From Leucoraja ocellata (taxonomy: Eukaryota), in assembly GCA_036785375.1 (NCBI GenBank), contig JAWMAR010000145.1, positions 5,332,001 through 5,396,000 of the forward strand: DNA of 64,000 nucleotides. The letters run 5' to 3'. Of this stretch, positions 1-35,800 are shown in pieces. A program made the position numbers and the translations under genes. The notes below the pieces were generated by a model that saw nothing but the letters and a program-made list of their open reading frames with translations, was not told the origin of the DNA and did no database searches. How positions within the stretch are numbered: the stretch's first letter is position 1; each line of letters starts with the position of its first letter.

Positions 1-1953
1 TATTCCCCGTCTCTACCAGACAATGGCGGGAATTGCAATAAACCAGATCTTAATATTTACCATTTTCACAGTCTCTGTATATTTACCAGCTTTTTTTATT
101 CCTCTATTATAACAGTTAGATAGTATCGTTGAGTATTGATGCTTCTATAATTGGAAAAGTTTACATGCAACCAAAGGCACAGATGTCCAAACAACCATCT
201 GCAACATCAACCTACGCAGCGGCGAGAAAAGACGAGGGAAGTGGGGTCATGTTAGAAACGACAGATTAGATGCCCGGTACTTAATAATTTGATTAAAAAA
301 GAACCATGCTGGATAGCTCATTTAAGGCCCTGAACTCAACTCAAGGTTTTTGCTGTGATCAAGGTATTTCTAGTTGAATCTCGAACACTTCACTATCCAT
401 TATCAACAATACTTCCATAACAACTATTTTAAATCGTGCACGATCTTATCTTTAAAAAGGCTCGATTGAAAGCGCTCCAGAACTAGCTTACAGTTTATCC
501 TGCGCTGGTCTCTATCAGTTTATTACTGCCATTAACACGCTAATTTCGCATTAAATAATATTTCTTGCCCCGAATATCCTTGGAGGGCGTCAAAATAGTC
601 AATTGATTCATTCTGGACAGTGCCCCCCATTTAAACAAAAAAAAGGTATAAATTGGTATTTATATCTGGGGACGTGATTACATTTAAGATTCATAAGAAA
701 CTATTCCTGATGGTCGGCAGTGAACAGTTTCAATCGAATTGCCAATGACAATGACAAAAGGAAGAAAAAAAAGAGCAGTTTGAATGTGTGGACACGTCGC
801 CCTGAAGTTTAAAACTGGTTTGTGTCGGTAATAGGGACAATACAAACAACTTTGAACCCATATGGCCGGTGTCTGGCGCGGAAGTACAGGACCTTGCGCC
901 TCTGCCGACTCGTCTCTGTTCCGCTGGTCACGGTGTGTGTCTGCACGTGTCTGTCTCTGCGCTGTACGTGACCGTCAGTCCTGCCAACTAGTTTTTTTTT
1001 CACTTGCCAAGCACCCGTTTAAAAAAAAAATGACATTTAACTAGTTCTACAAAGTCGGAATAGAAATATGCAAATTGAATGATAAATTGGTCGATGCATC
1101 TGGAAATGTTATCTAATTAGGGCGTAAGAATTTTAATCTTTGTAGCGAGCAGGTCAAATAATTACCGTTAATTTTACGCCCAAATTATCTTTCATTGATT
1201 TGTATTCTCTTAAATGTAGTTTGGCAGGAAATCATGATCCATACCAATAGATGTTATTTTATGTGTGAACACGGTGGGCCTCAGAGTGAATTATTGCAAC
1301 CCTCCCCATACAAATAACTAGATCGCATCATGTATGCATTATTAAGCCATGTAATTGAATGTTCCATAGTTTGCATATCAAACTATTAAAATAATGTGTT
1401 TTTCTTTTCTTCCAACACGTAATGTTGAAGCCTCCGCGTCTATTTTGTGACTCTGATAATTATGATCTAATTAGAGTAAATGTTCTCTTCATTTGGACGA
1501 GATTTTCCCAAGATTTTTGCATTTCCAGCCCGTCACGGTGCAGTCTGTGACGTACTTTGTTTCTGGAATCAATTACTTTGCACGTATTTATTGTTGCTCC
1601 TGATCTTACTTTTACCAGGAGAAAATAAAGCAGTTCATTATTGTTTTCGCCAGAGTCTTTCCTTCACCACGCCAATATTAAGAAATTAAACAACATAATA
1701 TATTTATATCCATACTTTAAGAAACACGATTTGTTTTTAAAAAGCCAATTGTAGTCTTCAGCACGCCACTCTATTTCCATTACAAATAATACAATGTACT
1801 TGGGGCAATATAACTCTAATATCTACAAACAGTAAGTAAAAGTTAGAGCAATGAATTACTAGAATATATCATTGAGTGAATGTTATCTATCAGTTAATTG
1901 GGGCAATTCCGCTATCGAGGCTGTCTCTCCAACCCCATTATTGTCAATTGTTT

Positions 1954-2134
1954 NNNNNNNNNNNNNNNNNNNNNNNNNNNNNNNNNNNNNNNNNNNNNNN
2001 NNNNNNNNNNNNNNNNNNNNNNNNNNNNNNNNNNNNNNNNNNNNNNNNNNNNNNNNNNNNNNNNNNNNNNNNNNNNNNNNNNNNNNNNNNNNNNNNNNNN
2101 NNNNNNNNNNNNNNNNNNNNNNNNNNNNNNNNNN
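1954..2134. other. Assembly gap (N run)
   Basis: Run of N; the X-containing ORFs spanning it are artefacts. Confidence 0.99.
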
Positions 2135-3547
2135 CAAGGTCAGTGTTTTTCTCATTACTATTTCATTATGGTATAAAAAGAACTAACCGTTAAGTCATTT
2201 TGAAGCCATAGATATGCTGCTCGCAACCATCGCTTCTGCACTTTGAAACATCTTTAAGTTGAAGGCCTCTATTGCCTGCTTTCTGTTTTATATGGTATAT
2301 TTTTTTTTATTTCTGTTTAATGCGCCGCTAGAGCTTCTTCCACAGTGGTTACTTATTTTGTACAAGCTTTCATAGAGTTGCAATACAAAGCTAATTGCAT
2401 CTCCATTGCAAAATAAGAGTCCCGAGGTTTAACGCAGAAGTTTTTAGTCATCAGACTGCACGAGTTAAAAGCAGAGCCTTTTCCATCACGAAGCAAAGGC
2501 GACTTGTTACTTGATTCCTTGCTTTATCGTGGGGGCAAAGTTAAAGTTGGGATTTTCTTGATTCGGTGTTTGCTCCTCGAGAAACCGAAAGAACGATATA
2601 ACGTCAATCAGTATTAAAAACGCACACCACGCACCAAAAGTGGTGGCATTGAATGCATCTTTACAGCAGAACCTAAAAGTAAATCTGCCTTTGTCACGAA
2701 GAATATTATTTATTATTGATTGTCATTGTCAGAGGTTGCCTTTCCCCTCGCGGACTCGGCAATAGATTTTTGTTAATACTTAAGACATTGCGACTGATTA
2801 ATCGACATGCAGCGAGCTCGTTCCACGCATGAAGTCGGGCCGGTGTGTTTATTTTTAATCATTTACTGTGTTGATTTTTCGCCCATTGGCCGAGAGCGAA
2901 ACGGTATCGCCGCCCCCGCTCTCTGAGCTGGACTTTTATTTTGGCTGAGGCTCGCCCACTTCCAAGAGTTTAAAAGAAGCCTTCAGATGTGCGAGGACAC
3001 CCAAACACAGCTTCAGTGTGAGCTTTGTTACTTCAGTTCTGCTCTTCACTATAGCAACGCCGAGCGTCTCGTCAAAAATGCACTTTCTCGGCACAATGGG
3101 ACATGCTGCGGGAGCCCAGAAAGAGACGCATCTGTTACATTTATTTCTCAAATTGCTGCACCATCTAGCTCAGGCAAAAAAAAGGGGGGGGGGGGGGGAG
3201 AGTAAAATACATCACACTTTTCGAGATTCACAGAGTGTGTTATATACATTTTGCAAATAGAGTTATATTTAAAAAACGTGTCAGTGTACAGCAACTGAAT
3301 GAATTGAAAGACAGATTTGCAGGTGCCGAAATAACAACAGAAGCACTAGAAAACATTCAGCTGGTCAGGCAGCAGCTGTGGAGAAGGATACAGGGTCCAC
3401 CAAGTTATAGGTCGACGATGTTACCCCGGGGGAATTCCGAATCAAACAATTGCAGAGGAAGGGGTTTGAGGGGGGGGGGGGGGGTCGTGGGAGTGAGGGG
3501 TGTACGATAAGTAACGATAAGGAAACAGAAGGAATTGCAGGTGCTAT

Positions 3548-3650
3548 AATCTTACATAAAACACAAAGTGTTGGAGTAATTCAACGGGTCTGGCAGCCTC
3601 TCTGGAGGACATGGATAGGCGACGTTTCGGGTCGGAACACTTCATTAGAC
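3548..3650 (-). mobile_element. Penelope-like element terminal fragment with degenerate hammerhead-like motif
   Basis: ACACAAAGTGTTGGAGTAATTCAACGGGTCTGGCAGC...GACGTTTCGGGTCGG is the reverse complement of the PLE-tail repeat seen many times in this window. Confidence 0.65.
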
Positions 3651-3667
3651 AGCGTAGGGAATGTGAA

Positions 3668-3765
3668 GGTACACAAAAATGCTGGAGAAACTCAGCGGGT
3701 GCAGCAGCATCTATGGAGCGAAGGAAATGGGCAACGGTTCGTGCCGAAACCCTTCTTCAGACTGT
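3668..3765 (-). mobile_element. ~98 bp PLE-derived mini-element with 10 bp TSD
   Basis: Flanked by GGAATGTGAA at 3658-3667 and 3766-3775; reverse complement is near-identical to 52298-52394. Confidence 0.8.
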
Positions 3766-5063
3766 GGAATGTGAATGTCTGTAATAGGATGGCCATTCAA
3801 GTAAACTAAATAACACAAGCGATTGCAGTCCGAGTTGAAAGAGGGTCGGTTTGTGAAGGTTTGTTAATCGCAGATGGTCTGTTTGGATGAGCTGTGAAAA
3901 GTAGGAGGCGAATGAGAACAAGATAATGCTTGGGTTTGTGAAAACTCACCATCTCTGACACACACCGGGAAAGCTAAAACGACACGAAGTTCACTATGTT
4001 AAGAATTGCCATCAAAAGTCTCGGTACAACTAGTAATGTGCTGCGGAATCGGGGAAGTTACCTTGGGGCTCGAAAAATAAAGTTATCTTTGGTGTCTACA
4101 ATGTTTATTTAATTGAATATAGCATCCGAAAAGCAATCATCTCCATTCTATCGGCCTAAGCAGACAGCTCCTGCATGGGTCAATGCAAACTATTGGATGG
4201 AATGACATCATCAATGAAAAGGCTTTTCAAGTGGGGCATTGCCCAGGCTCTGATTTCCATTCATAACGTGTAGGTAGTACGGGAAAGTGATTTGTGGTTT
4301 AAAGGCTGCATGAGAAAACGCAATAACAATTCAACACTGATATCAGTACGTTTCATTGTTTTTTTTTAATCAGATTTATTTTCGAAACCCCACTTGGAAA
4401 TAAAAAATCGACTTACTTAAGAATATGTTGAGCCTGTGCACTGAATGAAACAGACATATGTGCAATAAAGCCGTTCAAAACAGTCATTACGTCAGCACAC
4501 AATGCAAATCTGACTGCCCCGCTGCAGGAATTTAAATGCTCTCGCTAATTTGCCGAACATCGGTTTGGCATTTCATTAGATTCTCTTTCTATTTTCCACG
4601 AGGCGGGTGGAGTGACGGGGGCGACAGATGTAAGTAACTAGTTTTTGTATCAATTACATAATTAATTCCGAGTCTGGGTGTACAAGATCTGTGCAATGCA
4701 TAAGAAACTACTTCAGGAGAATTCGAGTAAAGGTTGGGACTGACATGAAAACGTACTGGTCTATTCTTCCAGGGAGACCAATTGGGACAAGTCTAATAAG
4801 AGTCTGGTTCGGCACTTCCGGTTTGACGCTTTGTAAGCATCTGTCTGTCTATGATGTAACTAGGAGTAGATTGCAAATGCACTTTCCCAAACGGGTGTGT
4901 GTTGCCAATGCACCGAATGCGTGGCTTTGCATAGCTGCTAGTTATGTGCATTACGGGAAATGAATACGATAACAGACGCCGATAAACTTTGTTTAAAATG
5001 CACCATATAATTGCATTTTGAAAAAGAATGTATTAATTCAGGCAAGAAAATCAAAGGTAGATC

Positions 5064-5238
5064 GATAGACACAAAATGCTGGAGTAACTCGGCGGATCGG
5101 GCAGCATCTCTGGAGAGAAGTCTGAAGAAGGGTCTTGACCCGAAACGTCACCAATTCCCTTTCTCCTGACCCGCTGAGTTACTCGAACATTTTGTGTCTA
5201 TCTTTGGTGTAAATCAGCGTCTGTAGTCCTTCCTGCAT
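5064..5238. mobile_element. Inverted pair of PLE tails (MITE-like) with hammerhead-like core at 5122-5149
   Basis: ATAGACACAAAATGCTGGAGTAACTC ... GAGTTACTCGAACATTTTGTGTCTAT inverted arms around CTGAAGAAGGGTCTTGACCCGAAACGTC. Confidence 0.75.
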
Positions 5239-5919
5239 AAGAATATCATATGGACGCTTTGAAACGACAGTCAATGTGAAACTGGCCACTTTATCATTAT
5301 ATCTTTAAGATTCTTGCTTGATTCATTCCTGTCGTCATATTGTCTAAAAAGAGAGAAATTAAAAAAAATTAAAAGTACGTATACGGAGACAGTATTTTAG
5401 TCGATAAATTATCACAAATAAAGTAAATGCATTAATGTTAAAGATGATCAAAACCTGCTAAGCGGTTGCCCGAGGAGGTAGTCTTATTTTCTGATTTTGC
5501 TGTTCACTCTCTATTGCCTGCGGATGTGTTTAAACGAGGACAGAAGGCTCTTAAATAAACCAGCTGAGAAACTTCCTGCATCGGAAAGACGCGGACTACC
5601 TCACAGATCACTGTGCAGTTCAAAGGTTTGGGGCCTTTTTAAAACCCCTGTCACGTCACAGTTTGTAGCCTTGTATTTGAACAGCTGCTCTGGGGGGGGG
5701 GGGGGGGGGGTGAACAGAAGCGAATACACCAAACTCTGTCTGTACGGCTGCAATACCCTGCAACCTGCTCTAGCCGAGGCTGTACCTCACTCGGCCGCTG
5801 TATTACGCGCCCGGACTCCAAGGAATAAGATATCAGAAGGGATTGCACGTGTGCCTATCATATCCGTTTCGCCGAACACCTGCACTCCCTCCGCCAAAGC
5901 CGACTGTATCTCCTCGTTG

Positions 5920-6300
5920 TATAGTTCAATTGCGTGGAAACAGGCCCAACGGCCCAACTTGCCCACACCGTCCAACATGTCCCATCTATAATAGTCCCAT
6001 CTGCCTGCGTTTAGGCCATATTCCTCTAAAACTATCCTATCCATGTACCTGTCCAAATGTTTCTGAAACTTTGCGATAGCACCTGCCTCAACGACCTCAT
6101 CTGGCTGCTCGCTGCATACACCCACCACCCTTTGTGTAAAAAAGTTACCCCTCGGATTCCTATTAAATCTTTCTCATCTCACCATAAACCTGTTCTCTTG
6201 TTCTCGATTCCCCTACTCTGGGCAGGAGGCTCTGCGTTTACCCAATCATCTCCTCTGACGATTTTGTACACGTCTAAGATCACCCTGCATCCTCCTCCGC
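5920..6300 (-). mobile_element. CR1/HER1-type LINE 3' fragment
   Basis: Minus translation QPDEVVEAGAIAKFQKHLDRYMD matches the CR1 ORF2 C-terminal motif (LPEEVVEAG..FKxHLDRYM). Confidence 0.85.
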
Positions 6301-6309
6301 TCTATTGCC

Positions 6310-6970
6310 TACTATTTTAATTCCTCTTTCCATTCCCGTACCCTCCTCCTCCATTGCCAGTGTGAGGCCAGGCACAAACTGGAAACGCAGCACCTCATCG
6401 CTTGGGTAGCATGCAACCCAATGGTATGGAAATAGAATTATCCAATTTCAGGTAACTAATTGAAGGTCACTAGTTACGCCTCTTCCCCTTTTCCCCTCTC
6501 TTGCCTGTGCCCCACCTGAATATGTCACCATTTCTCACAAATCAGAAACGTAGAAAATAGGTGCAGGAGTAGGCCATTCGGCCTTTCGAGCCAGCACCGC
6601 CATTCAATATGATCATGGCTGATCATCCAAAATCAGTATCCCGTTGCGGCTTTTCCCCCATATCCATTGATTCCCTTAGCCCTAAGAGATAAATCTAACT
6701 AACTCGCTTGAAAATAAAACAATATTCCACCCCCTTCCCGCTTCCCACTCGTACCTCCAGCCCCTTACCCCGTCACCTAGCCTCACTAGTTATGCCTCTT
6801 CCCCCCATTATCTCACGGTCTTCCTCTCTTCTCTACCCTTTATTCACCCATCTCTCAATCAAACCCCCCTCTCCCCCCCCCCAACTGTATCCACTAATCA
6901 CTTGTCTGGTTTTGTCCAGCCTCCACTTCTTTTCCAACTCTTCCCCCCCACCCCCCACCCCCTCATCTAC
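6310..6970 (+). mobile_element. Penelope-like element C-terminal (GIY-YIG end) remnant plus pyrimidine-rich tail, interrupted by a CR1 tail (6545-6710, -)
   Basis: Degenerate LLHCQCEARHKLETQHLI..LGSMQPNGMEIELSNFR* resembles vertebrate PLE ORF ends; followed by a C/T-rich tract. Confidence 0.7.
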
Positions 6971-7245
6971 AATCTTCTTCTTGTGTTTGAGGCATCAGAA
7001 GTCTGCAGCAGGGTGATGCCATCCGGTTCGACATCCATAGGTGCCCGCCCTAAAAAGGGCAGTTGGTTGGTGCCAAGCTGCGGCACTGCTGCTGTCTCTG
7101 TTTGCTGTCGTTCGCCTGACTGAGGTCAGTTGACAGGGCTCACCACTTGGATGTCGACAACATGAGCCCACCATCTACAATAAGTCTGAAGAAGAAACGT
7201 CGCCTCGTCACATTCTCTGGAGATGCTGCCTGACCCGCTGAGTCA

Positions 7246-8070
7246 TGGGCCTGTCACACTCAGGCGACGTTTTAGGCGGCTACAGGAGACTATGCACATG
7301 GTCGCCACATGGTCGCCACATGTTCACAGGTGGTTGCCGGGGAGGTGCCTTCATGGTCGTGAGGAGTTCCCACATTCTGGGAACTAGTCGTGGCCTCATT
7401 ATGGTCACCGTGAATGTTGAAAAATTTAAATGTTGAAAAATTAGCGGAGACTAGAATGAAGCCGCCATGGAGAGTAGCGAGAATTCTCGAGCCATAGGTG
7501 GGTCGCCACGCGGTCCTAATGGGTTTCCAGGAGGTCGAAGAATCTCGGTGGTTCTCGTAGGTTGTAGCCGGTACTGACCAGTGAATTTCTTTGGCTCATT
7601 GGGGAAAAAAAGGTAAGCAGTAGTTTTCAGAACCAAGGATAACCGATCGGTAATGTTAAATGTCCGCCGAGCTTCACAGCCGTGTATCTCTAGCTTCTTA
7701 AAAGTTGTCTCCACTCCTTCTCCCCCCTTCTCCCCCCCCCTCTCCACCCCCCTCTCCCCCCTCTTTTAAAGGACTTATCATATACTGTGCTATAGCCATC
7801 TATTTACAGCGCCAACCTTCCTGTTCATGGCGGTGTGTGTCTGTTTCACCTTGGCTTTGCACCGTGTGATTTATTTTAGGCAGTGCTCCCCCTGCTTGCC
7901 CTGTCCACCGCCTGCATAATGGGCTGGTGAAGGGAGCGATGCATTTGTGTGTGTGTGTGTGTGTTCCACTCTGACAGTCGCTGTTCCAGTTGCCATTTTT
8001 TCAGGCGACAGCCAGCAACTTGACAGTCGCCGGCAGTCCGCTGAAAAATCGCCTAAGTGGGACAGGCTCA
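7246..8070. mobile_element. Non-autonomous PIF/Harbinger-like DNA transposon (MITE)
   Basis: TIRs TGGGCCTGTCACACTCAGGCGA and (revcomp) TGAGCCTGTCCCACTTAGGCGA; flanking TCA/TTA consistent with a 3 bp TWA TSD; splits a PLE tail (CCCGCTGAG|TTATTCCAACAC). Confidence 0.75.
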
Positions 8071-8994
8071 TTATTCCAACACTTCGTGGCTTGTATTGTA
8101 AATCAGCGTCTGAAGTCCGTTGTGCCTATATCCATGTGCAAATGTTTTTATTTGGTCCTACAAATATCCAAATCAAGCATACAAATGGGCCGTGTATTGG
8201 GATGCATAGAACATACGCAGGTGCTTTAGATGTACATGAATGGGTAAAATATAATTGATGGGACGGCCCAGTAGCAATTCAACATCGCTTGCTGCACTGG
8301 AGACCCGGGTTCGACCCTGACTCCGGATGAAATGCAGGTCTGTACACACGAAGCAGCTCAGCTGCCGAGAACATACATCCCTAGTGACCTGTGACCTGGA
8401 CATGCGCAGTCGGAATACCGAACTTGCTTATTCTAAATCGGAATTAAGTGTACTGTGGAGACAGAAGAAAATGCAAATACAGGAACCTTGATCGCTCCCG
8501 CAGCTACGAGCCTCACCTACCGTAGACGTAATCAACAGGACCCCGACTCGAAACGTCGCCCATCCATTCCCTTCACATATGCTGTCTGACCCCCTGAGTG
8601 TCTCCAGTCCATTGTGTTTTGATTAAGCGTGCAGTCTTTTTTTTTACATAAATCCTAATTCTAGGTGGTTTGGTCCCAGGCTCACTGACAGTTTCCGAAT
8701 CTTTGTGGTAAAGAAAAGGGCAGACGATGGAGGAAAGGAGAGCGAAATGTAATCAAGTTGTCCCCGCTTCACGCTACATTCCGTACCACCACACACCATG
8801 TACAGGGGACATTCTGCCCACTTTCCGCAGAATATTACCTGGCCAGTGCATTTTACGCTTTGTTTGCCGGTGTGCCATCTACTGACACCTAACATACCGC
8901 ATGCTGTGGAGTGCAGTTCCTGGTGTCACCATTCTGGTCACTTAGAATTGACTCAGTTAACAGGGCACAACAGCGATCCCTACAGAAGTATCGT

Positions 8995-9350
8995 GTAGGA
9001 GCGAACTGCAGATGTTGGTTTACACCGAAGATGAATCTGAAGAAGGGTCTCGACCCGAAACGTCGCTTAGCCCTTTTCTCAAGAGATGCTGCCTGACCCA
9101 CTGATTTGCTCCAGCATTGTGTGTCTCCTATAGAAGTACACACGAATTTAGTTCTAAATATGAACTTCAGATTCTGGTTTATACCAAAGATGCACACAAA
9201 ATACTGGAGTAACTTAGCGGGTCACACGACATCTCTGAAAATAAATGGATATGTTCTATATACCCCGACTTCTTCCCGACTCGAAACCTATTCCTTCTCT
9301 CCAGAAATGCTACCTGACCCGCTGATTTACTCCATGATTTTGTGTCTATC
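8995..9350. mobile_element. Cluster of PLE-tail repeats; intact hammerhead-like core at 9037-9064 (+)
   Basis: CTGAAGAAGGGTCTCGACCCGAAACGTC followed by GAGATGCTGCCTGACCC...CTCCAGCATTGTGTGTC; further inverted arms to ~9350. Confidence 0.75.
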
Positions 9351-9699
9351 ACGGATTTTGTTCGCCACGTAAACCGCGTAACAAGCAGGAATATCCCGCG
9401 CACAGAGTCTTTAATGTTGATGTATTCGTAGCTTTCGTTTCACGTTCATTGCCAAGATTGCAGCACCACGAGTGGCTGCCTTTCGTTCAATGCATGCAAC
9501 CTTACTTCGTGGCACTTCACTCGTGGCGTTTGAGGTAGAAATAAAAAAACATCCATGCACCCGAGTTATAGCATGTAGGTCGATGACTCGCGCTGTCCAA
9601 TGACCCGATGACCCATTTACCTGTACTGTACGGAATGGCGAGTATAAGACAACCCTGACCTTTCAGCCACTTCGAAAAATAGAAGCAATTTGCAGGGAC

Positions 9700-11960
9700 C
9701 CGTTGCTGGTAAACTCCTCAGGCAAAGACACCACTCTAACCTCAGTAGTTCCATCTGTTTTAATCACAGGCTCAGTAATCACAGAACTCATCAGTAATCT
9801 CAATCTGAATATCGGGGTTAGACATTCTCCGGTTTGCAAACAAGCAACGGATTACACCCATACTTATATCTCTGGTATAATCTCACAGTCACCATCAAAT
9901 TGATTTAATCTCAATTTTATTCGAGATTTTCGGTGTAATTTTAATCTCGCTCCATGAATCTGGTTTGCCCCGAATGTGTCAACGTGCCCAATGTAATCAT
10001 TTTTTAATTGCCGATATTTTGTTTAATCTCTGTCTCAGCATCAAACTCCCATCTTAATCTAACGCACTGTCGATCTCCAGATTAATCTCAGCCTCACTCT
10101 GAAATCTTGGTTCAAATCAAAGACGATTAATTTACAAATCAACTCCGTTTTGATGCCAAAAAGATACCTGCATGAAGATGGCAGAATGGCTACGACACGG
10201 AGAAACGTTCTCGCTGGAGAAGAGAATATCGAGATTTGTTTCCAAACATAAAATAAAATAAAATTATATCGGTTGTGAATCCGAGTGAGAATTGAAGTAT
10301 TCCAAGCTTGTGAGTTTGGTAATGAGGGCAGCAGAGATAAGGATGGGGAGAGCACCGGTAATAACCCCACTGGGATATTGGCTAGGACAACCCCTTCTTA
10401 CATAATCAAATATGGATGCTTGTGAAAAGGAAATATTAAAATAATCACTCAATTTGCTAATGATTGCGGGTAAGCGCCTCATCCGGCGTCCGGCAGCGCT
10501 CCATGGTCTTCAAGTTCACCCCCTTCGAAGCTGTGGCGGCGCATTTTAGACGACAGAGTTCTCCGTATGAGTTGCTTGAGTTGCTCCAATTTCAGCGCTG
10601 AACAATTGTCCCAGGCTACGAGTTCTCTCTGTTCAACAGCTTCCTGAAGACAGGAGTCTCGCCACGAACCTTGTCTTGAAGACTGGTACGACGCCTGTTG
10701 GAAAACCAAAGTTCCAAGGAACAACCCATGGACATTATCATCCCAGCGGTGAGAGGCAACATTGCTTAATTTCCGCAGATCCACATGGCGGCCCCAGGGT
10801 TTAAACGACAATTAGAAGTCCTGTCCATAAACGTTGATGCCTTCCGATTTAACTGTGGAAGGGACCATGTGTAGAACCGAGACCTTGACATGAACCCGGG
10901 GTTGCAATTCTCTGGTGCCCACTCACCTTGCTCCAGTCACAGGTCATTCTGGTCCTTACTGGGTCCAATGTGGAGAACAATGTCAGAACATAAGAAAATA
11001 AGCAAGGAATTGGTTACCAGGCACTCTAGCCTGCTTTAAAGTAATCACTGCTAATTTACCCCTATCTTCAAATCCCTTCAAATGAGCCTCTAGATTAATC
11101 TCAATCTCTGGTCCGATGTCATAATTATTATCAAATTCCATTGAATTTCTCATTATCAGACCAATTTTAACAGTTTCAGTGTCTGGCTCTGGTTTCACCC
11201 GAGTCTTGTTACGTCCCTAATGTTTGCAAGTCAATCACTGTTTTACCTTCAATTTTAGATTCAGACCATGGTTCTCCCTCAGCCTCAATATTAGATTGTT
11301 TATTAAGTTTAGTCTTACGATTATGTTTAAATTTAATCTCACTCTGAGCCTCTAATTTAATGTCCGACCCACTATCATTGTATCCTCCATATTAGGCTCT
11401 GGTAAAACTTTAGTCTCAATCCCACTCTGAGGTTTAATCACAGTTTCACTATCAAGCAATGACTTAGTTTAAATATCACTGTCAATTTCCTCATAAATCT
11501 AATTCTCACAATCTGTCTCTAACTGATTATTGATCACTGGATTAATCTCAATTTTACTATCAGTCTCTAGTTTATTCTCCAACAGGCTTCAGTTTGATTA
11601 GTTTTAGACTCCTTTTCATCATTTTCAATCTTCCATGTTAACAGTTTTACGCTTAATCTTTACTTTAACTAAGTCTCTCATCAAGGCTCTACTTTAATTT
11701 TACGTTCACTGTCAGTTTTCAATCTCCATTTTAGATTTAAGTAAATCGTAGATCCAAAATCATTTTCTGGTTTAATCTGAACCTCACATTTTGGTGTCAT
11801 TTCATTCTCACTATCAGACTTTCGGTTAATCCTGCTCACCATACCTGTCCTTGTTTTAATTTCAGGCTTAATATCAATATCAGGTTTAATGTCAGATTAA
11901 TTCTATCTGTAATATAATCCTATTCTCAATATCGATTTAATGTCAGACTCACTACTACCC
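9700..11960 (-). pseudogene. Decayed coding-like repeat region (EIKPETDS-type units); possible pseudogene exons
   Basis: Recurrent plus-strand TTAATCTC/TTTAAT motifs; minus translation gives SDIKPDIDIKPEIK...QIKPEND...KIKVEP* (11896-11681), ETVIKPQSGIETK, SDIKLEAQSEIK, VKPEPDTET, broken by stops and frameshifts. Confidence 0.5.
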
Positions 11961-12305
11961 CAGTCATGGGCTTTAGCACACGACGGACCTTGGATGCAGT
12001 ATTAAAGCTTCTTGTGTTGAACTTGCAGATTCATCAGGTGTTGGTGGAGAATATTTTTCTCCAGATTAGTCATCTTGCCTTTTGAAAGAAGTACTAAACA
12101 CTTACCCTTTATGAAGACATGGGATTCACTTCAGGAACATGCACAGCTTCACAATCTTCTGTGTTATTCTCCACAATGTCACACACAACGATTAAGCTGT
12201 TGACATGAATTTATCCAACTCTTTATAATATAATTATTCGAATCATATACCTACACTATTGTCCAGATGTATGGAATCTTGTCATCTCCAATCTGCCAGG
12301 AGATA

Positions 12306-15950: not shown

Positions 15951-17218
15951 AGTATGATGCTGGCCATATTGCTGCTTGTCATCCATATCAACAACTTGCA
16001 TGAGAATGTACAAGGCGTGATTTAGACTGAAGAAGGCTCCTCGATTCCACCAGCCGGCTTGCAGTGGGGATTAAACTGTAGCTCACTGTGACCCCTGGGT
16101 CAAGTCCCAGGTTGATGCAGGACCTCCAGCAGGCCTCACACTGCCTTCCTCAGCTGGTGCAGGGCCTCCAGCAGGCCTCACACTGCCTTCGTCAGCTGGT
16201 GCGCTCACCGGCCCTTGGCCCGACTCCCTCCTCTCCGGTCCACAAGGCGAGCAGAGGTCGGGCTCAGCGGCACCCTGTCCGGGCTGGTTCACGGTACTGC
16301 AGCAGTGAGCCAGGCCTGTTTCCGGGCATGGCCGAGCGGAGCTGTGGCTTGTTGGCAGATCACCTTTTGATCCATAGAACATCTGCAGCTCCTTTTGTCT
16401 CCAAGGTGAAGGAGTATCAGTAGGAGAGCTTCCACATGGTAGTGATCATATTACAGTTATATTTAGTGTATATATGCAATAGGAGGAAAGATTTGTAATG
16501 GGGTAAGGATGATTTTGAGTCATCATTTAGAATAAGTGGAGTAGAAACTGCCGCTTGAAGCTAAATCAATGGGGGGCATTTAGGAAGTGGGTTTAATAGC
16601 ACAGGGTGAATATGCTTCCACAAACAAATAGGGACTGAAGCATCTAGACCTCCCGCGATGAAGTAAGGTGCAAAAGAAAGGTTTCCTCAGAAAACTTTTA
16701 GCATGCAAAAACATTACCAGGAAACAAACAAAAACATTCAAAGATGTACACAATTGCTCCTGGAAGAAGTGCACGATCTTCTCTATTCCTGGGAATCTCT
16801 GGCACATAAGTTCATAGGACATTGGAGCAGAATGAGGTAATTCGGCCCATCGAGTCTCAATGATGCCTCATGACCACTGAGGAAGATTCTTCATTTCCAT
16901 AGTAACTTCATGTCACCTCGGTACCCACAGAGTGGGGAATTGAATAAGTCACCCTTCATCCAAGGCACTGCTTAAGAAGAAGAATATAGCAATTTCAGAA
17001 AGGCTTTTGGCAAAATCCCCTGAGGCAGGTAAGTGAAAAAATCCAGAGCAAATTGGTTCCAAAACTGGCTGTGCAGTAGTAAGATAAAGATAATGGTTGA
17101 CATATGTTTGGTCACTAGTAGGTTATTATCAATGGGATTCCATAGGGGTCAGTTTACCATTTTATTTTGTAATACATATTAATGGTGTAGTTCTATTTTG
17201 TTTCATTCTATTACAGTT

Positions 17219-17507: not shown

Positions 17508-17725
17508 TAAACTAAACTAAACTAAACTAAACTAAACTAAACTAAACTAAACTAAACTAAACTAAACTAAATTAAACTAAATTTAACTTAACTTAACTAA
17601 ACTAAACTAAACTAAACCAAACCAAACCAAACCAAACTAAATTAAACTAAACGAAACTAAACGAAACTAAACTAAACTAAACTAAACTAAACTAAACTAA
17701 ACTAAACTAAACTAAACTAAACTAA
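17508..17725 (+). repeat. (AAACT)n pentanucleotide microsatellite, expanded SINE tail
   Basis: About 220 bp of ACTAA units with AAACC/AAACG/AAATT variants. Confidence 0.97.
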
Positions 17726-26049: not shown

Positions 26050-26220
26050 CCGGGCCCGCCCGCCCGCCCGCCCACCAATCGCATGCCGGGGATGCTGCTC
26101 CCTGGCCGGGGTTGCCATGGCAGCTCACATCAATCATGCGGCGAGCAGCCAATGGGAGGCCCGGGGCCGGCGCGTACACAGCGTCGGCTTTTCCTAGCTC
26201 GGCGCTGCTGCCAATGATCC
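26050..26220 (+). promoter_or_regulatory. POU3F2 proximal promoter: GC-box array, three CCAAT boxes, RFX X-box
   Basis: Overlapping CCCGCC repeats ~26055-26073; CCAAT at 26075, 26149 and 26211; GTTGCCATGGCAGC at 26111-26124. Confidence 0.65.
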
Positions 26221-26287
26221 GAGCTCGGTGCAAGTTGTCAAAGGCTCGGCTCGTTTAACAAGTCAGATCACTCCGGCTCAGCAAGTC

Positions 26288-27463
26288 ATGGCGACCACAG
26301 CATCAAATCATTACATTACGAGCGGCAATATCCTCACCTCCAACTCCATCGTGCACGCCGCCGAGCCGGGGAGCATGCAACAAGGGACAGCCTACAGGGA
26401 TGCACAGAAACTGGTCCAGAATGATTACATGCAAAGCAATGGGCACCCTCTCAGCCACGCTCACCAATGGTTAACCGCTCTCTCACACGCCGAGGGATCT
26501 CCGTGGTCGGCCGGCGTGGCGGCCAGTCCCCTCGGCCAGCAAGACATCAAGCCCACGGTGCAAACGGGGAGGGACGAACTCCACAGTGGGGGCACTTTGC
26601 ACCACCGGCCGCCTCACATGGTGCACCAGCACGGCAACCACCACGGTGCATGGGGCAACACCACCTCACCCCACATCCCCAGCATGGCATCCAACGGCCA
26701 AAGTCTCATCTACTCGCAGCCGGGCTTCACGGTCAATGGCATGATCAACCCGGCATCGACCCAAGGCATGCACCATGGGCTGAGGGAAGCCCACGAGGAG
26801 CATCACCACGGGGACCACGGTCAACATCACCAACAGCAACATCAGCAGCAGCAGCAGCAGCACCACCAGCAGCAGCAGCAGCACCACCAGCATCAGGGTC
26901 ACGAGCACTCGGACGAGGACACCCCTACCTCGGACGACTTGGAACAGTTCGCCAAGCAGTTCAAACAGAGGAGGATCAAGCTAGGATTTACCCAAGCCGA
27001 CGTGGGACTAGCTCTTGGGACGCTCTACGGCAATGTCTTCTCGCAGACTACCATCTGCAGGTTCGAAGCGCTTCAGCTGAGCTTTAAAAACATGTGCAAA
27101 CTCAAACCCTTGTTGAACAAGTGGCTGGAGGAGGCCGACTCGTCGTCCGGAAGCCCCACCAGCATAGACAAAATCGCTGCCCAAGGCAGAAAGAGGAAAA
27201 AGAGGACCTCGATCGAGGTGAGCGTCAAGGGAGCTTTGGAGAGCCATTTTTTGAAGTGCCCGAAGCCCTCGGCCCCGGAGATCACTTCTCTGGCGGACAG
27301 TCTGCAGCTGGAGAAAGAGGTGGTCAGGGTTTGGTTTTGTAACAGAAGACAAAAAGAGAAACGAATGACTCCTCCCGGAGGAGCACACCCCGGAGCCGAG
27401 GATGTATATGGGGCGAGGGACACCCCGCCGTCACACCATGGGGTTCAGACTTCTGTACAGTGA
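26288..27463 (+). CDS. POU3F2: POU class 3 homeobox 2 (Brn-2), intronless, 391 aa
   Basis: ATG in GTCATGG context; N-terminus MATTASNHY and [13 protein letters not shown]; POU-specific domain ([30 protein letters not shown]...) and homeodomain ([10 protein letters not shown]...[12 protein letters not shown]); C-terminus [22 protein letters not shown] is POU3F2-like; FBXL4 neighbour supports orthology. Confidence 0.96.
26822..26896 (+). repeat. CAG/CAC/CAT trinucleotide tract encoding poly-Q/H in POU3F2
   Basis: [25 protein letters not shown] just before the POU domain. Confidence 0.95.
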
Positions 27464-27939: not shown

Positions 27940-28265
27940 AGAGGATTTGGCCACGAGCTGCAGTTTTGATTGCTGCAAGAAAAAGGTATAGGGAGGAGAA
28001 AGGGAAATTCCAATACACTGCTCTCCGGGACTCGCCACCGTTCGAGACACTTGCGGGTTTGCTTCAAAGAAAATCCCACCAGAGTGGGAGACATTTCTCC
28101 CGGGCGCTGAATTGTACAAGTCGAAAGGCAGTGTATGTGAGGAGAAAATAGGCTGTGTCAATCAGACAGAGAGGGGCTCAGCTCCAACCATACAGTTCTC
28201 TCCGGGAACTGAAGTTGGGAGCTGCGAAATAGCAAACAGGATCAATTAACAGACACAAAGAAGGA

Positions 28266-28473
28266 AATAAATGAACGATAAATCGATACATTTCAGGCGC
28301 TATAAAGTATTACAGATCACCGACTAAAAGTTTTATCCCCATGTTTAATAAAAAAAAAAACTAATTCCGGTGGCAAGAAATGCAATACCTTTTATACGAG
28401 AGGACTATTACAAATATGCTAGCTAGCGTCTTTACGCCTCCGAATTAGCACTGTACAATAATGAATAAATAAA
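28266..28473 (+). terminator. Candidate POU3F2 polyadenylation signals
   Basis: AATAAA at 28266, 28347, 28464 and 28468; the true 3' end cannot be determined here. Confidence 0.3.
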
Positions 28474-29838
28474 ATTTCAGAGTCAAAATGTTGTAGTTCC
28501 TGCCACATTTTTTCGAAAGAATATATTGCAGTATAAAACATTGTACTTATTAAACGTGCGTCTACAATCTAACATAAAACAATCCACAGTCGGGTAAAAT
28601 GAAACAAAAAAAAGACCTTTAAAACGTATCAGTATATTGCGCTTTCTTACAAAGAACATATCCAAACATTCAAAATTCTAGAAAAGGTGTGTACATATTT
28701 GAGATATTTTGATGTGGTGATATGATTGTAATTTAACCGCAGTTATAGCGATTCCTAAAGACAATAAAATTTAGTAAGTGTTAGAGAAACATTTAAAAAT
28801 GTAAAAAAAAACACCAGGTCAGGTAGGTTGGTACAGGCAGAAATAATCCTGAGACACAAACTGAATTTTGTGTCTGTTCGTTTAGTGAAATGAAGTTGAA
28901 CGTGGAGTACTTTGTTAGAACCTTTTCGCATAGGTTTATGGAGAGCGGTTACCCATGCACATCTTATACCACTATGTATATATGTTGCATAAATTTGTCT
29001 TTTGAACTGAAGAAGATGAACAATATCTGAATGATTTTTTTTCCTTGTATACATTTTTCCATAATGCTGCCCAGGGAATTTTAATATCATTTTCACGTGG
29101 CCTGCCTCAATGTATTTATTTCTTTAAAAGAAGTTTTGGAAACTGTTTCTTCTGTAGCTTTAATTGATTAGATGTTATATGTGGGATGTAATTTTTTTCC
29201 GTTATGCTTTCCCCCCTCCCCACCCTTCTCTTGAAAAGATTGTTTTTGGTACATTTCAATGTGTCTTGTGAAGATAAACGAAGCAACGCAGAGTCCCTTA
29301 TATATTTATGTTAAAGTAATATTTTATTACTTACATAAAACAAGCGATCGCACAACCTTGAAGTCTTATGTGGTGGTTTTGTGGGGAAATTATATTTTCT
29401 GAGCGGATGGTGGGAACGGATAGTTTATCCACTAAACCGGTATCAGGGCTACAGTATTATTCTAATGAGACAATAAGTATAATATTCACATCTATAAACA
29501 CAACAATCGTTTCAAGATCATCTCAATAGATATGAAGAAACACTCCTAGAAACAGAAATACATTGTTTTAAAACAATCTTTATTCCGTACTGCATTTTTT
29601 ATTTTTTTTGTGCGCGTGGAGAGACACAATACCTTTCAAATTTGTACCATTACACCTTACATTGGTCTATGTGACGCGCACACATCTATGTTCTTATTAC
29701 TAAATCGTTCTTTTGAATTATAAATGTTAACCTATTTTAGGATATCTTACATATCATTTTAATTATAATTAATAATAATGATGCAGATGAGTAAATGTAT
29801 AATGGTTAAAATTGATCTGCATACATTATGTATATATA

Positions 29839-29843
<5 letters not shown>

Positions 29844-29890
<47 letters not shown>
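29844..29890. repeat. (TA)n microsatellite
   Basis: Perfect TA run. Confidence 0.98.
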
Positions 29891-29892
<2 letters not shown>

Positions 29893-32800
29893 CCAATCTA
29901 GATATTCTTTAAGACATTTCAACTAATATGTCACAGTGGCCAGTTTCAAATAGAATCAATTATTCTGCACGTATTTCCTCTCTCGCAATGCAAAACCGAT
30001 CGGTTTCTCTGATGATCTTTTAAATATAAATCCACACACCTACATTTTTAATTTTGGCTAGCAGCGTCTTATTTTTTGAATTGGGTACAATATTTGACAA
30101 ATCAGCTTTGTTTTTAGAGTTAAAAGCTGGCTGTAGACCAGTTCACCTCCACGTTAAGTCATTGTTACACGCGTACAGAAGATATTCAGCTAAATTATCT
30201 TATCAATACAAAGAGAAATTTGACAGAAAGAAGAAGTGTTTTCTGACCACAAACGTGCTGATCGGGTGAAATGTTTTATTTGACTATAGATCTGGGAGCA
30301 TTGTTCAATAGTTGCCTCTGCTTGATCAGGAAGGAGCGTGACTGCCCTCTGTTGGCCAGTGTCTCAGATAGGATGGTGATCAACGAACCCTTTCCTTCCA
30401 GAGCAGTTCGATTTTACCTGGCGGCGTTTACCCCGTTTGCTGGTTTCGAAGTCAGATCATTTACATCTATAACCAACTTATCCCTTCTCATAAATTACCA
30501 TTGACACGAAATGTTAACAATCCAATATGCTGATTATTTGGGAAAAACTAATTGGCAATGGAGAGGTGTATTTTCCCTTTTTAATATAATTTTGCTGTAT
30601 ACCGAATTCCATGCTAAACTTCAGGAAAGTGGTAACTACATCAGCGAAGTGCTAACATCCATGCAGCAGGTTAAATTATTTTGTGGTTCTGAGGTTGTAG
30701 ATTTTATATACTAGAAATATGTTGTGTTATTGCACTCTACAGTATATGTAAACGAGTAAACCATAACAAATATCAAATAATAACAACATTTAGTAAATGC
30801 CGTATATCCATACATACAAAATTAAAAATGGTATACTTATTTATGAGTTTCTAGATTATCTTCAGTTCTTAGGGTAAATGCAATCGTAACTTTAAAGTTG
30901 TGCAATCTATAGAACACGTTGAACGCGATCGCTTTCGCCGAATTTCGTCCCATTTTCCTTATGCCCACTTTTAAATTAGTTTCATACCAAGAGGTGAAAT
31001 GAAGCCGTAAATGCAGAGAGCCGGAGTAATCGGATTAGCTCATAGATCTAACGCTGAGGGAAGTTTCGGACGTATTTCACTATTAAAATGAATTATTGAA
31101 TTAGGCTCCGGTAATCGATCCAGTAATTTGATTTTACAGACTGTTTGAAAACACCGTGCTCCAACCAATCCACCCCCAAACCCCATAACCTCCGCAACGG
31201 CAGTCGCAGGCGCTCTAAAGCCAACTACAAAATAATATTAAATGTTACTTCCATCCACGTTTTGACATGCTTTAGATTCTCTCGGATAGAATGGAAGAAA
31301 TTATTTTAGACTTCAAGGGCAGATTGTGCAAGAGATGTGTATTCCTAAACCGTTAGTATAGTCAGCTGGATTTCAATACAGCTATTACACCACGATATTT
31401 GCCCTGTCTTGTTCGCTTTCATCGTGAGTATGATGAACCTGAATTATTTTCAGTTCCAAATGAATGGTTGAATGTCAAAATGCGATTCCCTAAAAACGTA
31501 ATATATTTTGTCCTTGAAATAGAAAATTGATGCAAAATGAAATGCTCGCCCGTGGGTGTGTCTGTGTGTGTGAGAGAGTGTGTAGTGTGGGAAGTGGTGA
31601 ACGGGAGGAGGGTGAGGGGGGGGGGGGGGGGGGGTGTGGATTTCGAAATCAAGCCACACTCTGTCTAAAAGTTGATGATAATATAATATAACCATATAAC
31701 AATTGAGTATAGAAGTTGGGATGTTTCCGGGCTCTTCCTCAGCGGTTGTGTGGGTGGGTGTGGGGGTGGATGGAGGGCGCATGGGAAGAGGGTAGGGATG
31801 GGGGAGGGGGTGGGGGGTGGGGGAGGGGGGAGGAGTAACATCCAGAATTGTAGCTGCCAGTACATCAAATATTGGACATTTGTTATTGGAAACATGTTGG
31901 CACGATGAACACGGCCAGGCACCGTCAAATCTAAAGCAAAATCATAGTTTGAGGATGTTTGCAAGAATATTTTACTTCTATGCAGTAACGGTACACAGTT
32001 CATTGTTATAAAACTGCAATGTGGTTTATTAAAGCAGGATAACACGTTTGAACGGGAATAACCCCTTTTAACCGTTACAAAACTCTAGCGGAGATATATT
32101 TTAGATAATATAACATGCGATATTGTGGTGCCGGTACCGGTCGATGTGTTGTGTTTTGGAACACACGTCATGTTGAGAACAACGAGTTACTTGGTTACTT
32201 GTTCGACGTTCTTCTGTCTATAAATAAGTATCGCGGTCTATTCAAACTGCTCTCCCAACCGCTTCGACCCCGTCCATGAAATACCCAAACAGCTGGTCTT
32301 TAGCACCAGACCCAGAATAATTCAGATATTCAGGGGAAGAAATCCGAATAGGTTAAATCCGTGAAACCAATACGAACCTGTTGTCAGACTAAAGAGCTCG
32401 TTTCATTTGAGGAGTAAAAGTATGAACGGGTTATTTGTTCCCAGTTGATCAGCGATACAAATCAAGAGCGCGGCAACACGCTTTGCTCCAAAACTATATC
32501 GAAACTCCGTCAGAACTGTTAGAACCTTATTTGTGCTAATGCACGAACAAAGGCGACGACGCTAACATCCTTAGTAAACTTCTATGTTAAACGCAAGGGC
32601 TTGCAGCTACAATTTCAAACTAACCTATACAGGAGTTAAGGCACGGAATTATAACGAGATGCGAATCCTAGATAAGGCTGTGAATACACAAACGTGTGAT
32701 TACACCGACACATTCTGTGCAATAGAATGAACCTATTACGGAGTTACTCGCGGGGGTCCTAAATAAAATCCCGAGAATGCTTTTTCACTAAAAATCAAAT

Positions 32801-35800
32801 TGTGCATGAATAAACGTACCGTCGAGTCAAACGTTCACATTTATCCAATTAATCGAACTTCGAATTAGAATAATACGGTTGAAAGCAGAACCTGTTCACA
32901 TCATTAAGGCGCATACAGCCACCTGCCAGAGACTTAGTTATTTAAATACACATTGATACTTTAAAAGTTGAAATCCACTCTTGGTATAAAATGGGCATGG
33001 TATAAGCGCACGCGCACACACATATATGCAAAATAAAACATATAAACTAGGAATAAGTTTATGTCTATGTGCACGACAGCTGGAATGTGCCGACATGCAT
33101 ACAGACGATGCAAACAAGCGAGAGAAGTGAAACTTATAGAAAACCCATCCACTCACATGGCAAAGGACACACATGCATATTTAACCACTTTAACACACTC
33201 GGTTGCACGCACACTCGGACACATAGATAAACAATAAGAAGGTGAAGGGTGCTCTCACCGTTACAACAGAGATGTCTCATGTCAAACTTTGACTATAATG
33301 GGAAGAAAGTAACGAGCGCAGAGAAAAGGAGGTTTTAAAGGAAATCCCGTATCACGTTGCACTGCCATTGACTTTGGGAAACAGAACGTATATTAACAAA
33401 GTTACCTGAGATTGAACTTCACTTTAATAAGAACAATTATTCGTACATATGTTTATATTGTTCTTATCTTAATCTAAACTCCATGTACCGTTGTCCATGG
33501 AGCCTTTGTGGCTATATTTTCAGCAATGTAATCCAATGTTATTTTTTTCGAAACTAACGATAAAGTTATCGTAAGATTTTTTTCTAAATGGCACTTGTTA
33601 CCTTTCAATGAAATGTCTCCTGTATATTCAATGAAGTGGCCCGGTATATTACACAGATCCAATGTGCCTCAATGATTACAACGCAAAGTGTAAATTACGG
33701 GGTATGCAACGAAAAAAGACACCCGTGTAAAATGTTTTGCAGATCAAACAGATCTTATCCGTACAGTGAGCGTGATGTCGCAACTAAATTATCTGGTAAT
33801 ACCTTGCAGAATAATTTTTACTCTGTCCACATTTATACTATAAAGTAGTTAGCTCACGCACAACATTGTAAAATAACCAACAAGGGCAAGGAGATGTTCT
33901 CGTTGGCCCTTCTACAAGGTAGAGAGCTTTGAATTTTATCGATGACTGTTATTCTTTTAGAAAACACTGGGTTTTTTCTAAAATGCGGCAAATTAATACC
34001 GAGTGTGTTAACTAAATATCAGTTCAAGTTGGTGGCTTTCTTGTTTACAAGTATCTTCGCGTAAATAAAAACTACTTATGTTTTACTGGAAAGGAACATG
34101 ACGGTGTATTCAAGTTAAAACCGGGCAATGCTTATAAGAGTGGTAAATAATTTAGGTCAATGTATTTTGACTTCCGCGTAGTAAAAGTTATCCAAAGTCC
34201 TTCAAATTATTATCCAATATCATTAGATTCAAAAGAATAACATGTTACGCAGGGCTTTAAGCAGGGAAGTGATACTTAAAAATTAGATTCTGGAGGCAAA
34301 GTTGTACAGTTGCTGTCCATAATAGAGACAATGGAGTGAGTTGATCGACGTTCAACTTTAAAAAAATCCTCAGCAATACCAAACTTGTGGTAACCATTGT
34401 GACTAAAATCATAAAACAACAAAAATAAACCCCTTTCTATTTTATAACTTGTAAACGAATGTTCCCTAGATTTGCAACAGCAACGGCCCCCTTTCATATT
34501 CAAATGCATTGCTGTTCCTTTAATCTTGTGTCATGAAAGTTCTTTGCAATTATTTCAGTTCAGGGATACAATCTTTAACCTACTGTGGATTTTGGTTCAA
34601 CCCTTCTGGGACTTTGATTTTCACAGTGCTTTTACTGTGGATGTGTACATATAATTTATAATTTCTGTTTTAAAATTTCAGTACTATCAATTGACATGCG
34701 AGTTCCTGTGGGGTTTGCTTTAGACATTGCTGCTCGGGGGAATGGGCATATCGTTTAATAGGAGTTCGGTAGTTGAAGTTGGAAATCAAGTTTAATGTTG
34801 ATGGGAATTAGTAGCTTGCGTGGTACATTGGTGCGCGTACACATGCGGAGAAAAAGATTAGGAGTTTAACAAAAAATTATACTGTAGTCATAGGAAAGAT
34901 CAACTCGTCAAAAAATGCTGCTGATATTTTAAAGTATTCCCTGCATTTGGGAAATGAATGGAAATGTACCGTTAGATGTTTCTTTGTAATTTTGTGAAAA
35001 TAATTAGGGGAATATCGCACTCTATTTTCCAGTTACGCTAGATCCATGGCTTCCGCAAGTGAGAAATCTGCTTAATATTTAAAAACAACCAGGCACATAA
35101 CAAGTAAAAGGAAAAAAAATCAGTTTTCTTCACAATGTGTAAAAAAATCATCCCTATACAGTTAGAAAGTTTATGACTGTATTTACTTTTTATCCTTAGT
35201 CCCAAAGCAATAGAAAAAAAAGAACAGAACGGAAAGTCAATCAATTATTAATCCATTTGCAATTGTTGACTTTCGAGGGATTGGGAAAAGGATCTACGTT
35301 TGTGCATCGTTAATAAAAGTGCGAGTTAATACAAGATCAGGTTATTTGCTCGGTCTGCCGACCAATCCTTAATTCACCGAGAGAATTTTGCATGAAATGC
35401 TGGAACGAATGCACACAGGCACAACAAAGTGTGGCTCCAAATACCGAGAAATGTCGCCAGAAAATAAAGGGGTTATTTTCGAAAGATAGCAAACGACGCT
35501 GCTAATAATTTGCTATGGAAACTAATTCGAGGAAAGTCTAATTTACAAGGGATATGTCAATTGCTGTCATTTGTTCCACTGAATATGTTGCAAACAAATT
35601 TGAAACAGAAGAACATTTCTAACATGTCTGAAAGGTTTTCTCTTTGATCCTCTGATTTAGTTTTCCAATTCACAAGAGCCAGATTAATTCGCAACATTTT
35701 AGTCAGCTCGAAAAATCTAACAGCGTTTATTTTCTCGAAAAAAAATATTGCGAATTACTCTAGCTTGTGAATTGCAAAACTGAATCAGGGGATCAAAGGG

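Follow-up and report, generated by a model that had tools for sequence, protein, structure and literature searches.

An old, unconstrained 30-bp tandem repeat upstream of a POU3F2-type gene in Leucoraja ocellata: possible remnant of a once-translated region

Introduction

Two kinds of decayed sequence invite comparison with the locus described here, namely the unitary pseudogene (or decayed coding VNTR) and the degenerate minisatellite. Repeated words of a similar kind also occur in the C2H2 zinc-finger genes of ray-finned fishes, which have repeated IKEE-type N-termini. In relation to SUMO, the GCNA family has been described as possessing an acidic, repetitive intrinsically disordered region with SUMO-interacting motifs (PMC5098910), and IKxE, VKxE and IKxEP are reported to rank, in human data, with the most strongly enriched of the SUMO-only motifs (PMC13213312).

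The locus in question lies on the minus strand of a genomic contig of Leucoraja ocellata, upstream of a POU3F2-type open reading frame (ORF), and comprises about 30 degenerate 30-bp units built from 6-bp subunits and distributed over two blocks. A first-pass annotation interpreted it as the relic of an unannotated gene whose product was a structural repeat protein or one with multiple SUMO sites. Our preferred reading, to which we assign a probability of roughly one half, is that it is an old single-locus 30-bp tandem repeat, now unconstrained, and what is left of an acidic, low-complexity region that was once translated and had died well before the sampled species split. Of the original idea of a relic gene, the single locus, the real breaks and a mild support for coding are retained in this reading, and the constraint and the enrichment of SUMO motifs are not.

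Results and discussion

Architecture of the repeat

The features of the locus are listed in table 1, with positions counted in the window, i.e. the whole analysed stretch of 64,000 nucleotides. The autocorrelation of block 1 peaks at each multiple of 6, with z values of 7.9 at lag 30 and 5.6 at lags 6 and 12, as compared with a highest z of 3.3 in three control stretches and the spacer; the signal from block 2 is far weaker (best z of 2.9). The head-to-tail periodicity above chance that defines a degenerate tandem repeat is thus present, if weakly in block 2, and the periods of 6 and 30 are multiples of 3, a property set beforehand as a test. An iterated 30-bp profile delimits 30 units, 22 in block 1 and eight in block 2, and 15 of the 30 attain a leave-one-out score of at least 14 bits, a level reached by none of 279,160 flanking positions. 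Tandem Repeats Finder reports a single 18-bp doublet at the repeat. One further unit stands alone at 8666-8695 (minus strand), 1 kb past block 2 and beyond SINE copies; it reaches 17.8 bits against the profile and is possibly a third remnant of the repeat.

The peptide repeat noticed in the first-pass annotation is really there: all nine of the peptides quoted (9/9) were recovered from the minus strand, in three different frames, and the 71 open codons starting at 11896 were found as well, the stop-free stretch ending at 11684. Taken by itself, this stretch is within chance (P = 0.09 in base shuffles). The register remains open for about 30 non-repetitive codons beyond block 1. The codon-majority unit is (K/E/D)-x-D-S-E-I-E-I-K-P, and the third-position T of its second codon is among the best-conserved letters of the unit.

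Table 1. Features of the repeat locus and its surroundings (positions in the window).
Feature	Position	Strand	Remarks
Repeat block 1	11079..11962	-	some 22 degenerate units of 30 bp (variants of 24-36 bp) with 6-bp subunits; 8 register-breaking shifts
Repeat block 2	9732..10119	-	about 8 units, more decayed; 6 register breaks
Spacer between blocks	10120..11078	.	non-repetitive, about 45% GC, single-copy, about 0.95 kb
Longest stop-free stretch in repeat register	11684..11896	-	71 codons; disrupted in D, E and G by indels 1-34 bases long
Stretch of about 200 bp deleted in some	10926..11128	.	missing, at the end of block 1, from the second haplotype (C19:264830) and from the run of organism B; retained by D, E and G
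Single-exon POU class III ORF	26198..27463	+	421 codons stop to stop

A single locus with real disruptions

DNA searches of the genome returned two matches, the window itself and contig C19, both belonging to the same colinear locus. Across the 36 kb that were compared, POU gene included, the contig runs colinear with the window at 97-100% identity, and most likely represents the other haplotype; it carries most of the stops of the window and all of its frame switches. When the 71-codon stretch was compared with its own genome, only these two places were hit at a meaningful E-value, and a search of the genome with a consensus-like pattern gave no match. Within the limits of searches that are insensitive to very old copies, the repeat is therefore not a dispersed satellite or transposable element. 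The initial statement that it matches none of the transposable element types recognised there is upheld by these DNA, protein and pattern searches of the genome, none of which revealed a multi-copy element, and the same is true of the stops and frameshifts, which are real rather than read errors, the disruptions being common to the second haplotype and four other assemblies.

The two haplotypes are separated by 40 non-microsatellite indels per 425 substitutions over 35,955 aligned bases, which provides a neutral indel ratio. They are about 2% apart at 6079-10925 as compared with 0.6-0.9% at 1-6078 and 27940-36362, and in the former interval they differ more from each other than the window does from organism B. 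It is possible that a shared old polymorphism, or introgression between close species, lies behind these differences and the distribution of the deletion at 10926-11128.

Evolution of the repeat in relatives

Part of the stretch was found in 20 of 24 sequencing runs, which bear eight species labels and come from nine studies. Over positions 9600-12300, the number of letters differing from the window amounts to 38 in organism B, 111 in D, 169 in E and 158 in G; the spacer is seen in all four of these relatives, partly deleted in B. The codon-level comparison concerns a single species pair, the window and organism G (about 5% diverged), over 776 bases of block 1 (11190-11965). There are 41 differences, of which 40 were tabulated, and in the repeat register these are spread over the three codon positions as 13/14/13. 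With five synonymous and 35 nonsynonymous changes, pN/pS is 1.65 and does not depart from neutrality (binomial P = 0.42), and the other registers, with pN/pS of 0.56-1.33, give no coherent signal. The orthologues thus exhibit neither a synonymous bias nor a longer frame, an outcome that the initial interpretation had itself named as a refutation. The divergence of block 1 from G (41/776) is barely lower than that of the whole 2.7 kb (158/~2,670).

The indels tell much the same. All seven tabulated in block 1 have lengths that are not multiples of 3 (four in G, of 1, 2, 2 and 7 bases; two in D, of 2 and 34 bases; and a one-base indel in E), two extra in-register stops are common to E and G, and the switches near 11590 and 11385 are accompanied by no compensating indel in either of these two organisms. 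Many letters of E and G are nearer to the repeat consensus than those of the window, so the array is eroding rather than being maintained. Two indels deserve separate mention: a loose end suggests two extra bases in E near 11212, and G has a one-base gap at 11901, both situated at register breaks of the window and both keeping the register in the species concerned. They show that some of the breaks are recent, and they do not separate a coding from a non-coding array. Outside block 1, three 6-bp indels (at 10379, 10451 and 10105) are seen among about seven events in the relatives over 9600-10942; the remaining ones are frameshifting, so there is no clear frame signal for the spacer.

The repeat thus evolves without protein constraint in the relatives sampled, and it is likely that no protein is made from it today. 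Two single-cell RNA runs of organism B, sampled at 1 and 3 in 100 reads, contained no read on the 776 bases, a sampling too thin to bear on expression.

The SUMO reading

Motifs of the form [IVL]Kx[ED] number seven on the minus strand of the kilobase 11001-12000 and four in that of 10001-11000, with at most three per kilobase elsewhere in the window. Within the 391 codons of the repeat, the literal IKPE is found twice, the strict [IVL]KxE five times and the relaxed psi-K-x-E/D eight times; when residues are shuffled within two alternating classes, 3.4 strict matches (P = 0.24) and 5.2 relaxed ones (P = 0.13) are expected. Both VKPEP and IKVEP occur. The residue that follows IKP is mixed (K in seven, E in six and D in four of the 30 units), so that the consensus ends in IKP-K/E/D, and residues of the SUMO motifs are altered in relative G. 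A multi-SUMO-site consensus, as originally proposed, must accordingly be abandoned, as the motif is not enriched beyond composition: the SUMO words are a product of the alternation of E/D/K with I/T/S/P and offer no evidence of function. A general caution applies here, for an array of GAG-ATT-type hexamers alone spells SUMO-consensus words and creates long open stretches.

Surroundings and searches for a donor

The repeat is situated 14.2 kb upstream of the POU ORF, which we take from its sequence to be of the POU3F2 type, and reads away from it; the surroundings are presumably a developmental-gene desert. No exon or Pfam domain was found near the repeat, and a pattern scan for a zinc-finger array in the window and 100 kb upstream yielded just two isolated chance C2H2 patterns. 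A literature search returned nothing on this locus. Within the POU3F2-type ORF, a CAG/CAC-rich tract (26822-26896, plus strand) encodes poly-Q/H, and the two haplotypes do not differ over 1,405 bases around it. Two other tandem arrays lie between the repeat and the POU gene, a 42-bp two-copy repeat with a 21-bp substructure (16116-16202) and a TAAAC array of 44 copies (17508-17725).

Pfam searches of ten ORFs and six read-through frames of 9301-12302 detected no domain, the sole match having an E-value of 0.16. With one 367-residue frame, HMMER retrieved from 1.84 billion representatives three short, near-identical Logan gene calls derived from the same locus and no further homologue. Word-seeded searches for longer proteins were likewise blank for the spacer ORF (0 of 145 candidates), the 71-codon stretch (0 of 28) and a six-row repeat alignment (0 of 3,090). 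Blank protein searches are weak evidence where a fast-evolving low-complexity protein is concerned.

No paralogue of the spacer was found in the genome with five of its six frames (the three of the minus strand and plus-strand frames 2 and 3). Of ten loci with weak own-genome protein matches (E-values of 0.2-6.6), eight were inspected in detail or by alignment, and there the similarity was to SINEs or to Penelope/CR1 debris, in antisense or across a junction. An origin of the spacer from LINEs (L1, Rex1-like) or Penelope was rejected, the scores of 22 frameshift-aware alignments to such frames from this genome (39-51) being compared with shuffled maxima of 41-58; Gypsy, DIRS and DNA transposons were covered by the Pfam and own-genome protein searches. 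Rfam gave two matches, both far below the gathering score.

In the contigs of four species, a search for a second locus at 80% likeness found only pieces of 36-41 bp, the short second matches being to 11597-11633 and 12007-12042. The first of these has counterparts at two places on contig C1 (32/40 letters), in a sequence that we take to be a decayed CR1 linker, and is not a lead to a parent gene. The second has counterparts on C38 and C799 (33/36 letters), with no more similarity and no repeat block in 60 kb, and was likewise dismissed as a paralogue. This 36-bp segment (92% identical; L018:1465-1500 on C38/C799) is conserved in four species and may be the trace of a very old dispersed element immediately upstream of block 1.

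Some peculiarities of the genome came to light in the course of these searches. Contig C1 bears two near-identical segments in opposite orientation about 204 kb apart (11838018-11841041 and 12042409-12045432; L016 and L017), representing either a large inverted duplication or an assembly artefact. A Penelope reverse transcriptase split by a CR1 piece (L022-L029) recurs on at least ten contigs, many of them high-numbered, as a multi-copy duplicated block, and a very young L1-type family (L052-L081) includes, among 150 scored copies, many with an open ORF2 of 1,270 codons.

Did the repeat ever code?

Segments phased by hand contain three stops in 391 codons as against 11.4 in class-preserving shuffles, a deficit that we dropped as partly circular, since the segment ends had been picked by eye. 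A stop-blind register contains 8-9 stops in about 400-413 codons, with nine CAG+CAA codons versus five TAG+TAA, and 2-4 of 16-30 register switches keep the frame. We simulated arrays that had never coded and arrays that had coded and then died, in 12 settings each per run and with the indel ratio measured between the haplotypes; all of them start from a single homogeneous ancestral unit and let mutations arise independently, assumptions that are violated by slippage. The average Bayes factor for coding followed by death was 3.8 in one run and 2.8 in another with a different ancestral unit, and the gap in fit between the best coding and the best never-coding model was no more than 0.6-1.2 log units. 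Under these models, a coding past would be favoured at about 3 to 1, a weak and model-dependent support. The coding-then-dead models correct the misfits in GAA+GAC codons and stops, but they over-predict C at the last subunit position more, and C at the third position of the second codon is rarer than both kinds of model predict (z from -1.6 to -4.7), worst of all under strong purifying models.

On a former protein-level constraint, as suggested at first, the signals are mixed: a coding origin is mildly favoured by these Bayes factors, but the majority-letter share of the 30-bp profile is 0.60, 0.69 and 0.65 at the first, second and third codon positions, so the third positions are not the most variable. 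Weighing the Bayes factors and the triplet period together with the low prior probability that a gene desert should contain a coding relic, we judge the odds that the repeat once coded, in whatever form and including the small chance of an intact host orthologue surviving elsewhere, to be a little better than even.

According to our preferred reading, the array would have expanded by slippage of 6- and 30-bp units within an open frame, its product having probably been a disordered stretch in which charged residues (E/D/K/N/Q) alternated with I/T/S/P. The frame would subsequently have been lost, followed by neutral decay of about 0.12-0.2 substitutions per site as estimated from the coding models. 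Candidate donors may include a host gene, a retrocopy or the ORF of an extinct mobile element, with no SUMO function singled out, and the array was either split by the unique 0.95-kb spacer or built around it. As the divergence since the split from G is about 0.03 per lineage, the decay in the coding models corresponds to some 4-7 times one lineage's divergence since that split; the non-coding models put 0.25-0.3 substitutions per site between the uniform array and the present. Either class of model would make the repeat several times older than the split from G. A literature search found no absolute substitution rate for dating, and we therefore give no absolute date.

Alternative explanations

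A serious competitor, at somewhat under even odds, is a minisatellite that never coded, in which a purine-rich hexamer array gave rise to a 30-bp higher-order unit, an unrelated insertion of 0.95 kb then divided the array, and it decayed neutrally by about 0.25-0.3 substitutions per site, the peptide being an accident of GAG-ATT-type hexamers. With the measured indel ratio and about 0.3 substitutions per site, a simulated array that never coded indeed reproduces the short-lag and 30-bp autocorrelation, the eight register breaks and the share of xAx codons; neither the count of SUMO motifs nor the ORF length exceeds chance, contigs of organism G contain (in loose ends) a compositionally similar hexamer array, and the searches for a nearby exon, domain or homologue were blank. 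What this model leaves unexplained is the excess of GAA+GAC codons, of which there are 22, z = 2.3-3.3 above the never-coding simulations (P at most 0.025 in all 24 settings). Stops also run low, with six in register in block 1 as against means of 8.4-15.2 in 12 never-coding simulations, although P varies from 0.01 to 0.61 across the settings, and a period divisible by 3 would be expected about once in three. The repeat is thus likely an ordinary neutral fossil, whether of an ancient low-complexity coding region or of a minisatellite, and as an unconstrained fossil it is of little importance.

Far less probable is the loss in skates of a host gene, coding for a structural or multi-SUMO-site repeat protein, that other cartilaginous fishes would still carry intact at this locus. 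In its most elaborate and equally improbable form, the blocks and the spacer would together represent a lost, unannotated cartilaginous-fish gene head-to-head with POU3F2. Its product would have been a disordered scaffold in which IKPE-type SUMO acceptors, spaced at ten residues, flanked a novel central domain, and the gene would survive in sharks or chimaeras, having been lost before the diversification of skates. Such a gene would fit the restriction to one locus and the orthologues seen under at least four other species labels, as well as the two register-keeping indels and the presence in the repeat of words related to those enriched in human SUMO data (PMC13213312). However, the acceptor motif is not enriched, the position after IKP is mixed, protein searches revealed no homologue, and most of the breaks are common to A, E and G, so any death of the gene must be old. 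Were an intact shark or chimaera orthologue to exist, the locus would amount to a lineage-specific gene so far undescribed, set in a developmental gene desert, and its loss on the way to skates could be dated.

A fragment of a recognizable multi-copy retrotransposon, or an element functional now (a short ORF, lncRNA exon or POU3F2 enhancer), is very improbable, given that the 36-bp match at 92% elsewhere in the genome, the short spacer stretches that by eye we take to resemble LINE reverse-transcriptase motifs and the presumed gene-desert position are outweighed by the lack of a second locus in searches by DNA, by five of six spacer frames and in four species' contigs, by L1, Rex1-like and Penelope alignments at shuffle level, by Rfam scores below gathering and by the unreduced divergence of the region; an origin from a recent element is largely refuted.

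Comparison with known systems

The acidic, repetitive and likely disordered character of the predicted peptide recalls GCNA as described in PMC5098910, a likeness by description only, but what that source reports for GCNA are SUMO-binding motifs and not arrays of acceptors, and no Pfam match to a SprT-type protease or a zinc finger of the GCNA kind was obtained in six frames of 9301-12302 (the wider flanks having been scanned by pattern only). SUMO acceptor sites of the psi-K-x-E type (PMC13213312) favour disordered regions, and the repeat resembles them in that its acidic, low-complexity sequence contains five strict matches and eight relaxed ones; it differs in that its matches are not enriched, are absent from most units and lie in no frame shown to be expressed or open. 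The repeated I-K-x-E-like words in an acidic stretch also bring to mind the fish C2H2 zinc-finger genes, but the locus has no TGEKP linker and no zinc-finger array downstream.

The two remaining systems come closer. With a degenerate minisatellite that has a higher-order unit, the repeat shares the head-to-tail 30-bp units, the 6-bp subunits, the 24/36-bp variants and the neutral decay, and is set apart from it by a mild excess of GAA/GAC and a shortage of stops in one register. With a unitary pseudogene or decayed coding VNTR, it shares the single locus, the stops and frameshifts that are partly common to the relatives and partly lineage-specific, the neutral substitutions and the period divisible by 3; real disabling mutations and neutral evolution since the presumed loss, both characteristic of unitary pseudogenes, were observed. 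It differs from them in having no identified exon structure or domain, the searches run having pointed to no candidate functional orthologue or parent, and its coding origin is favoured at about 3 to 1.
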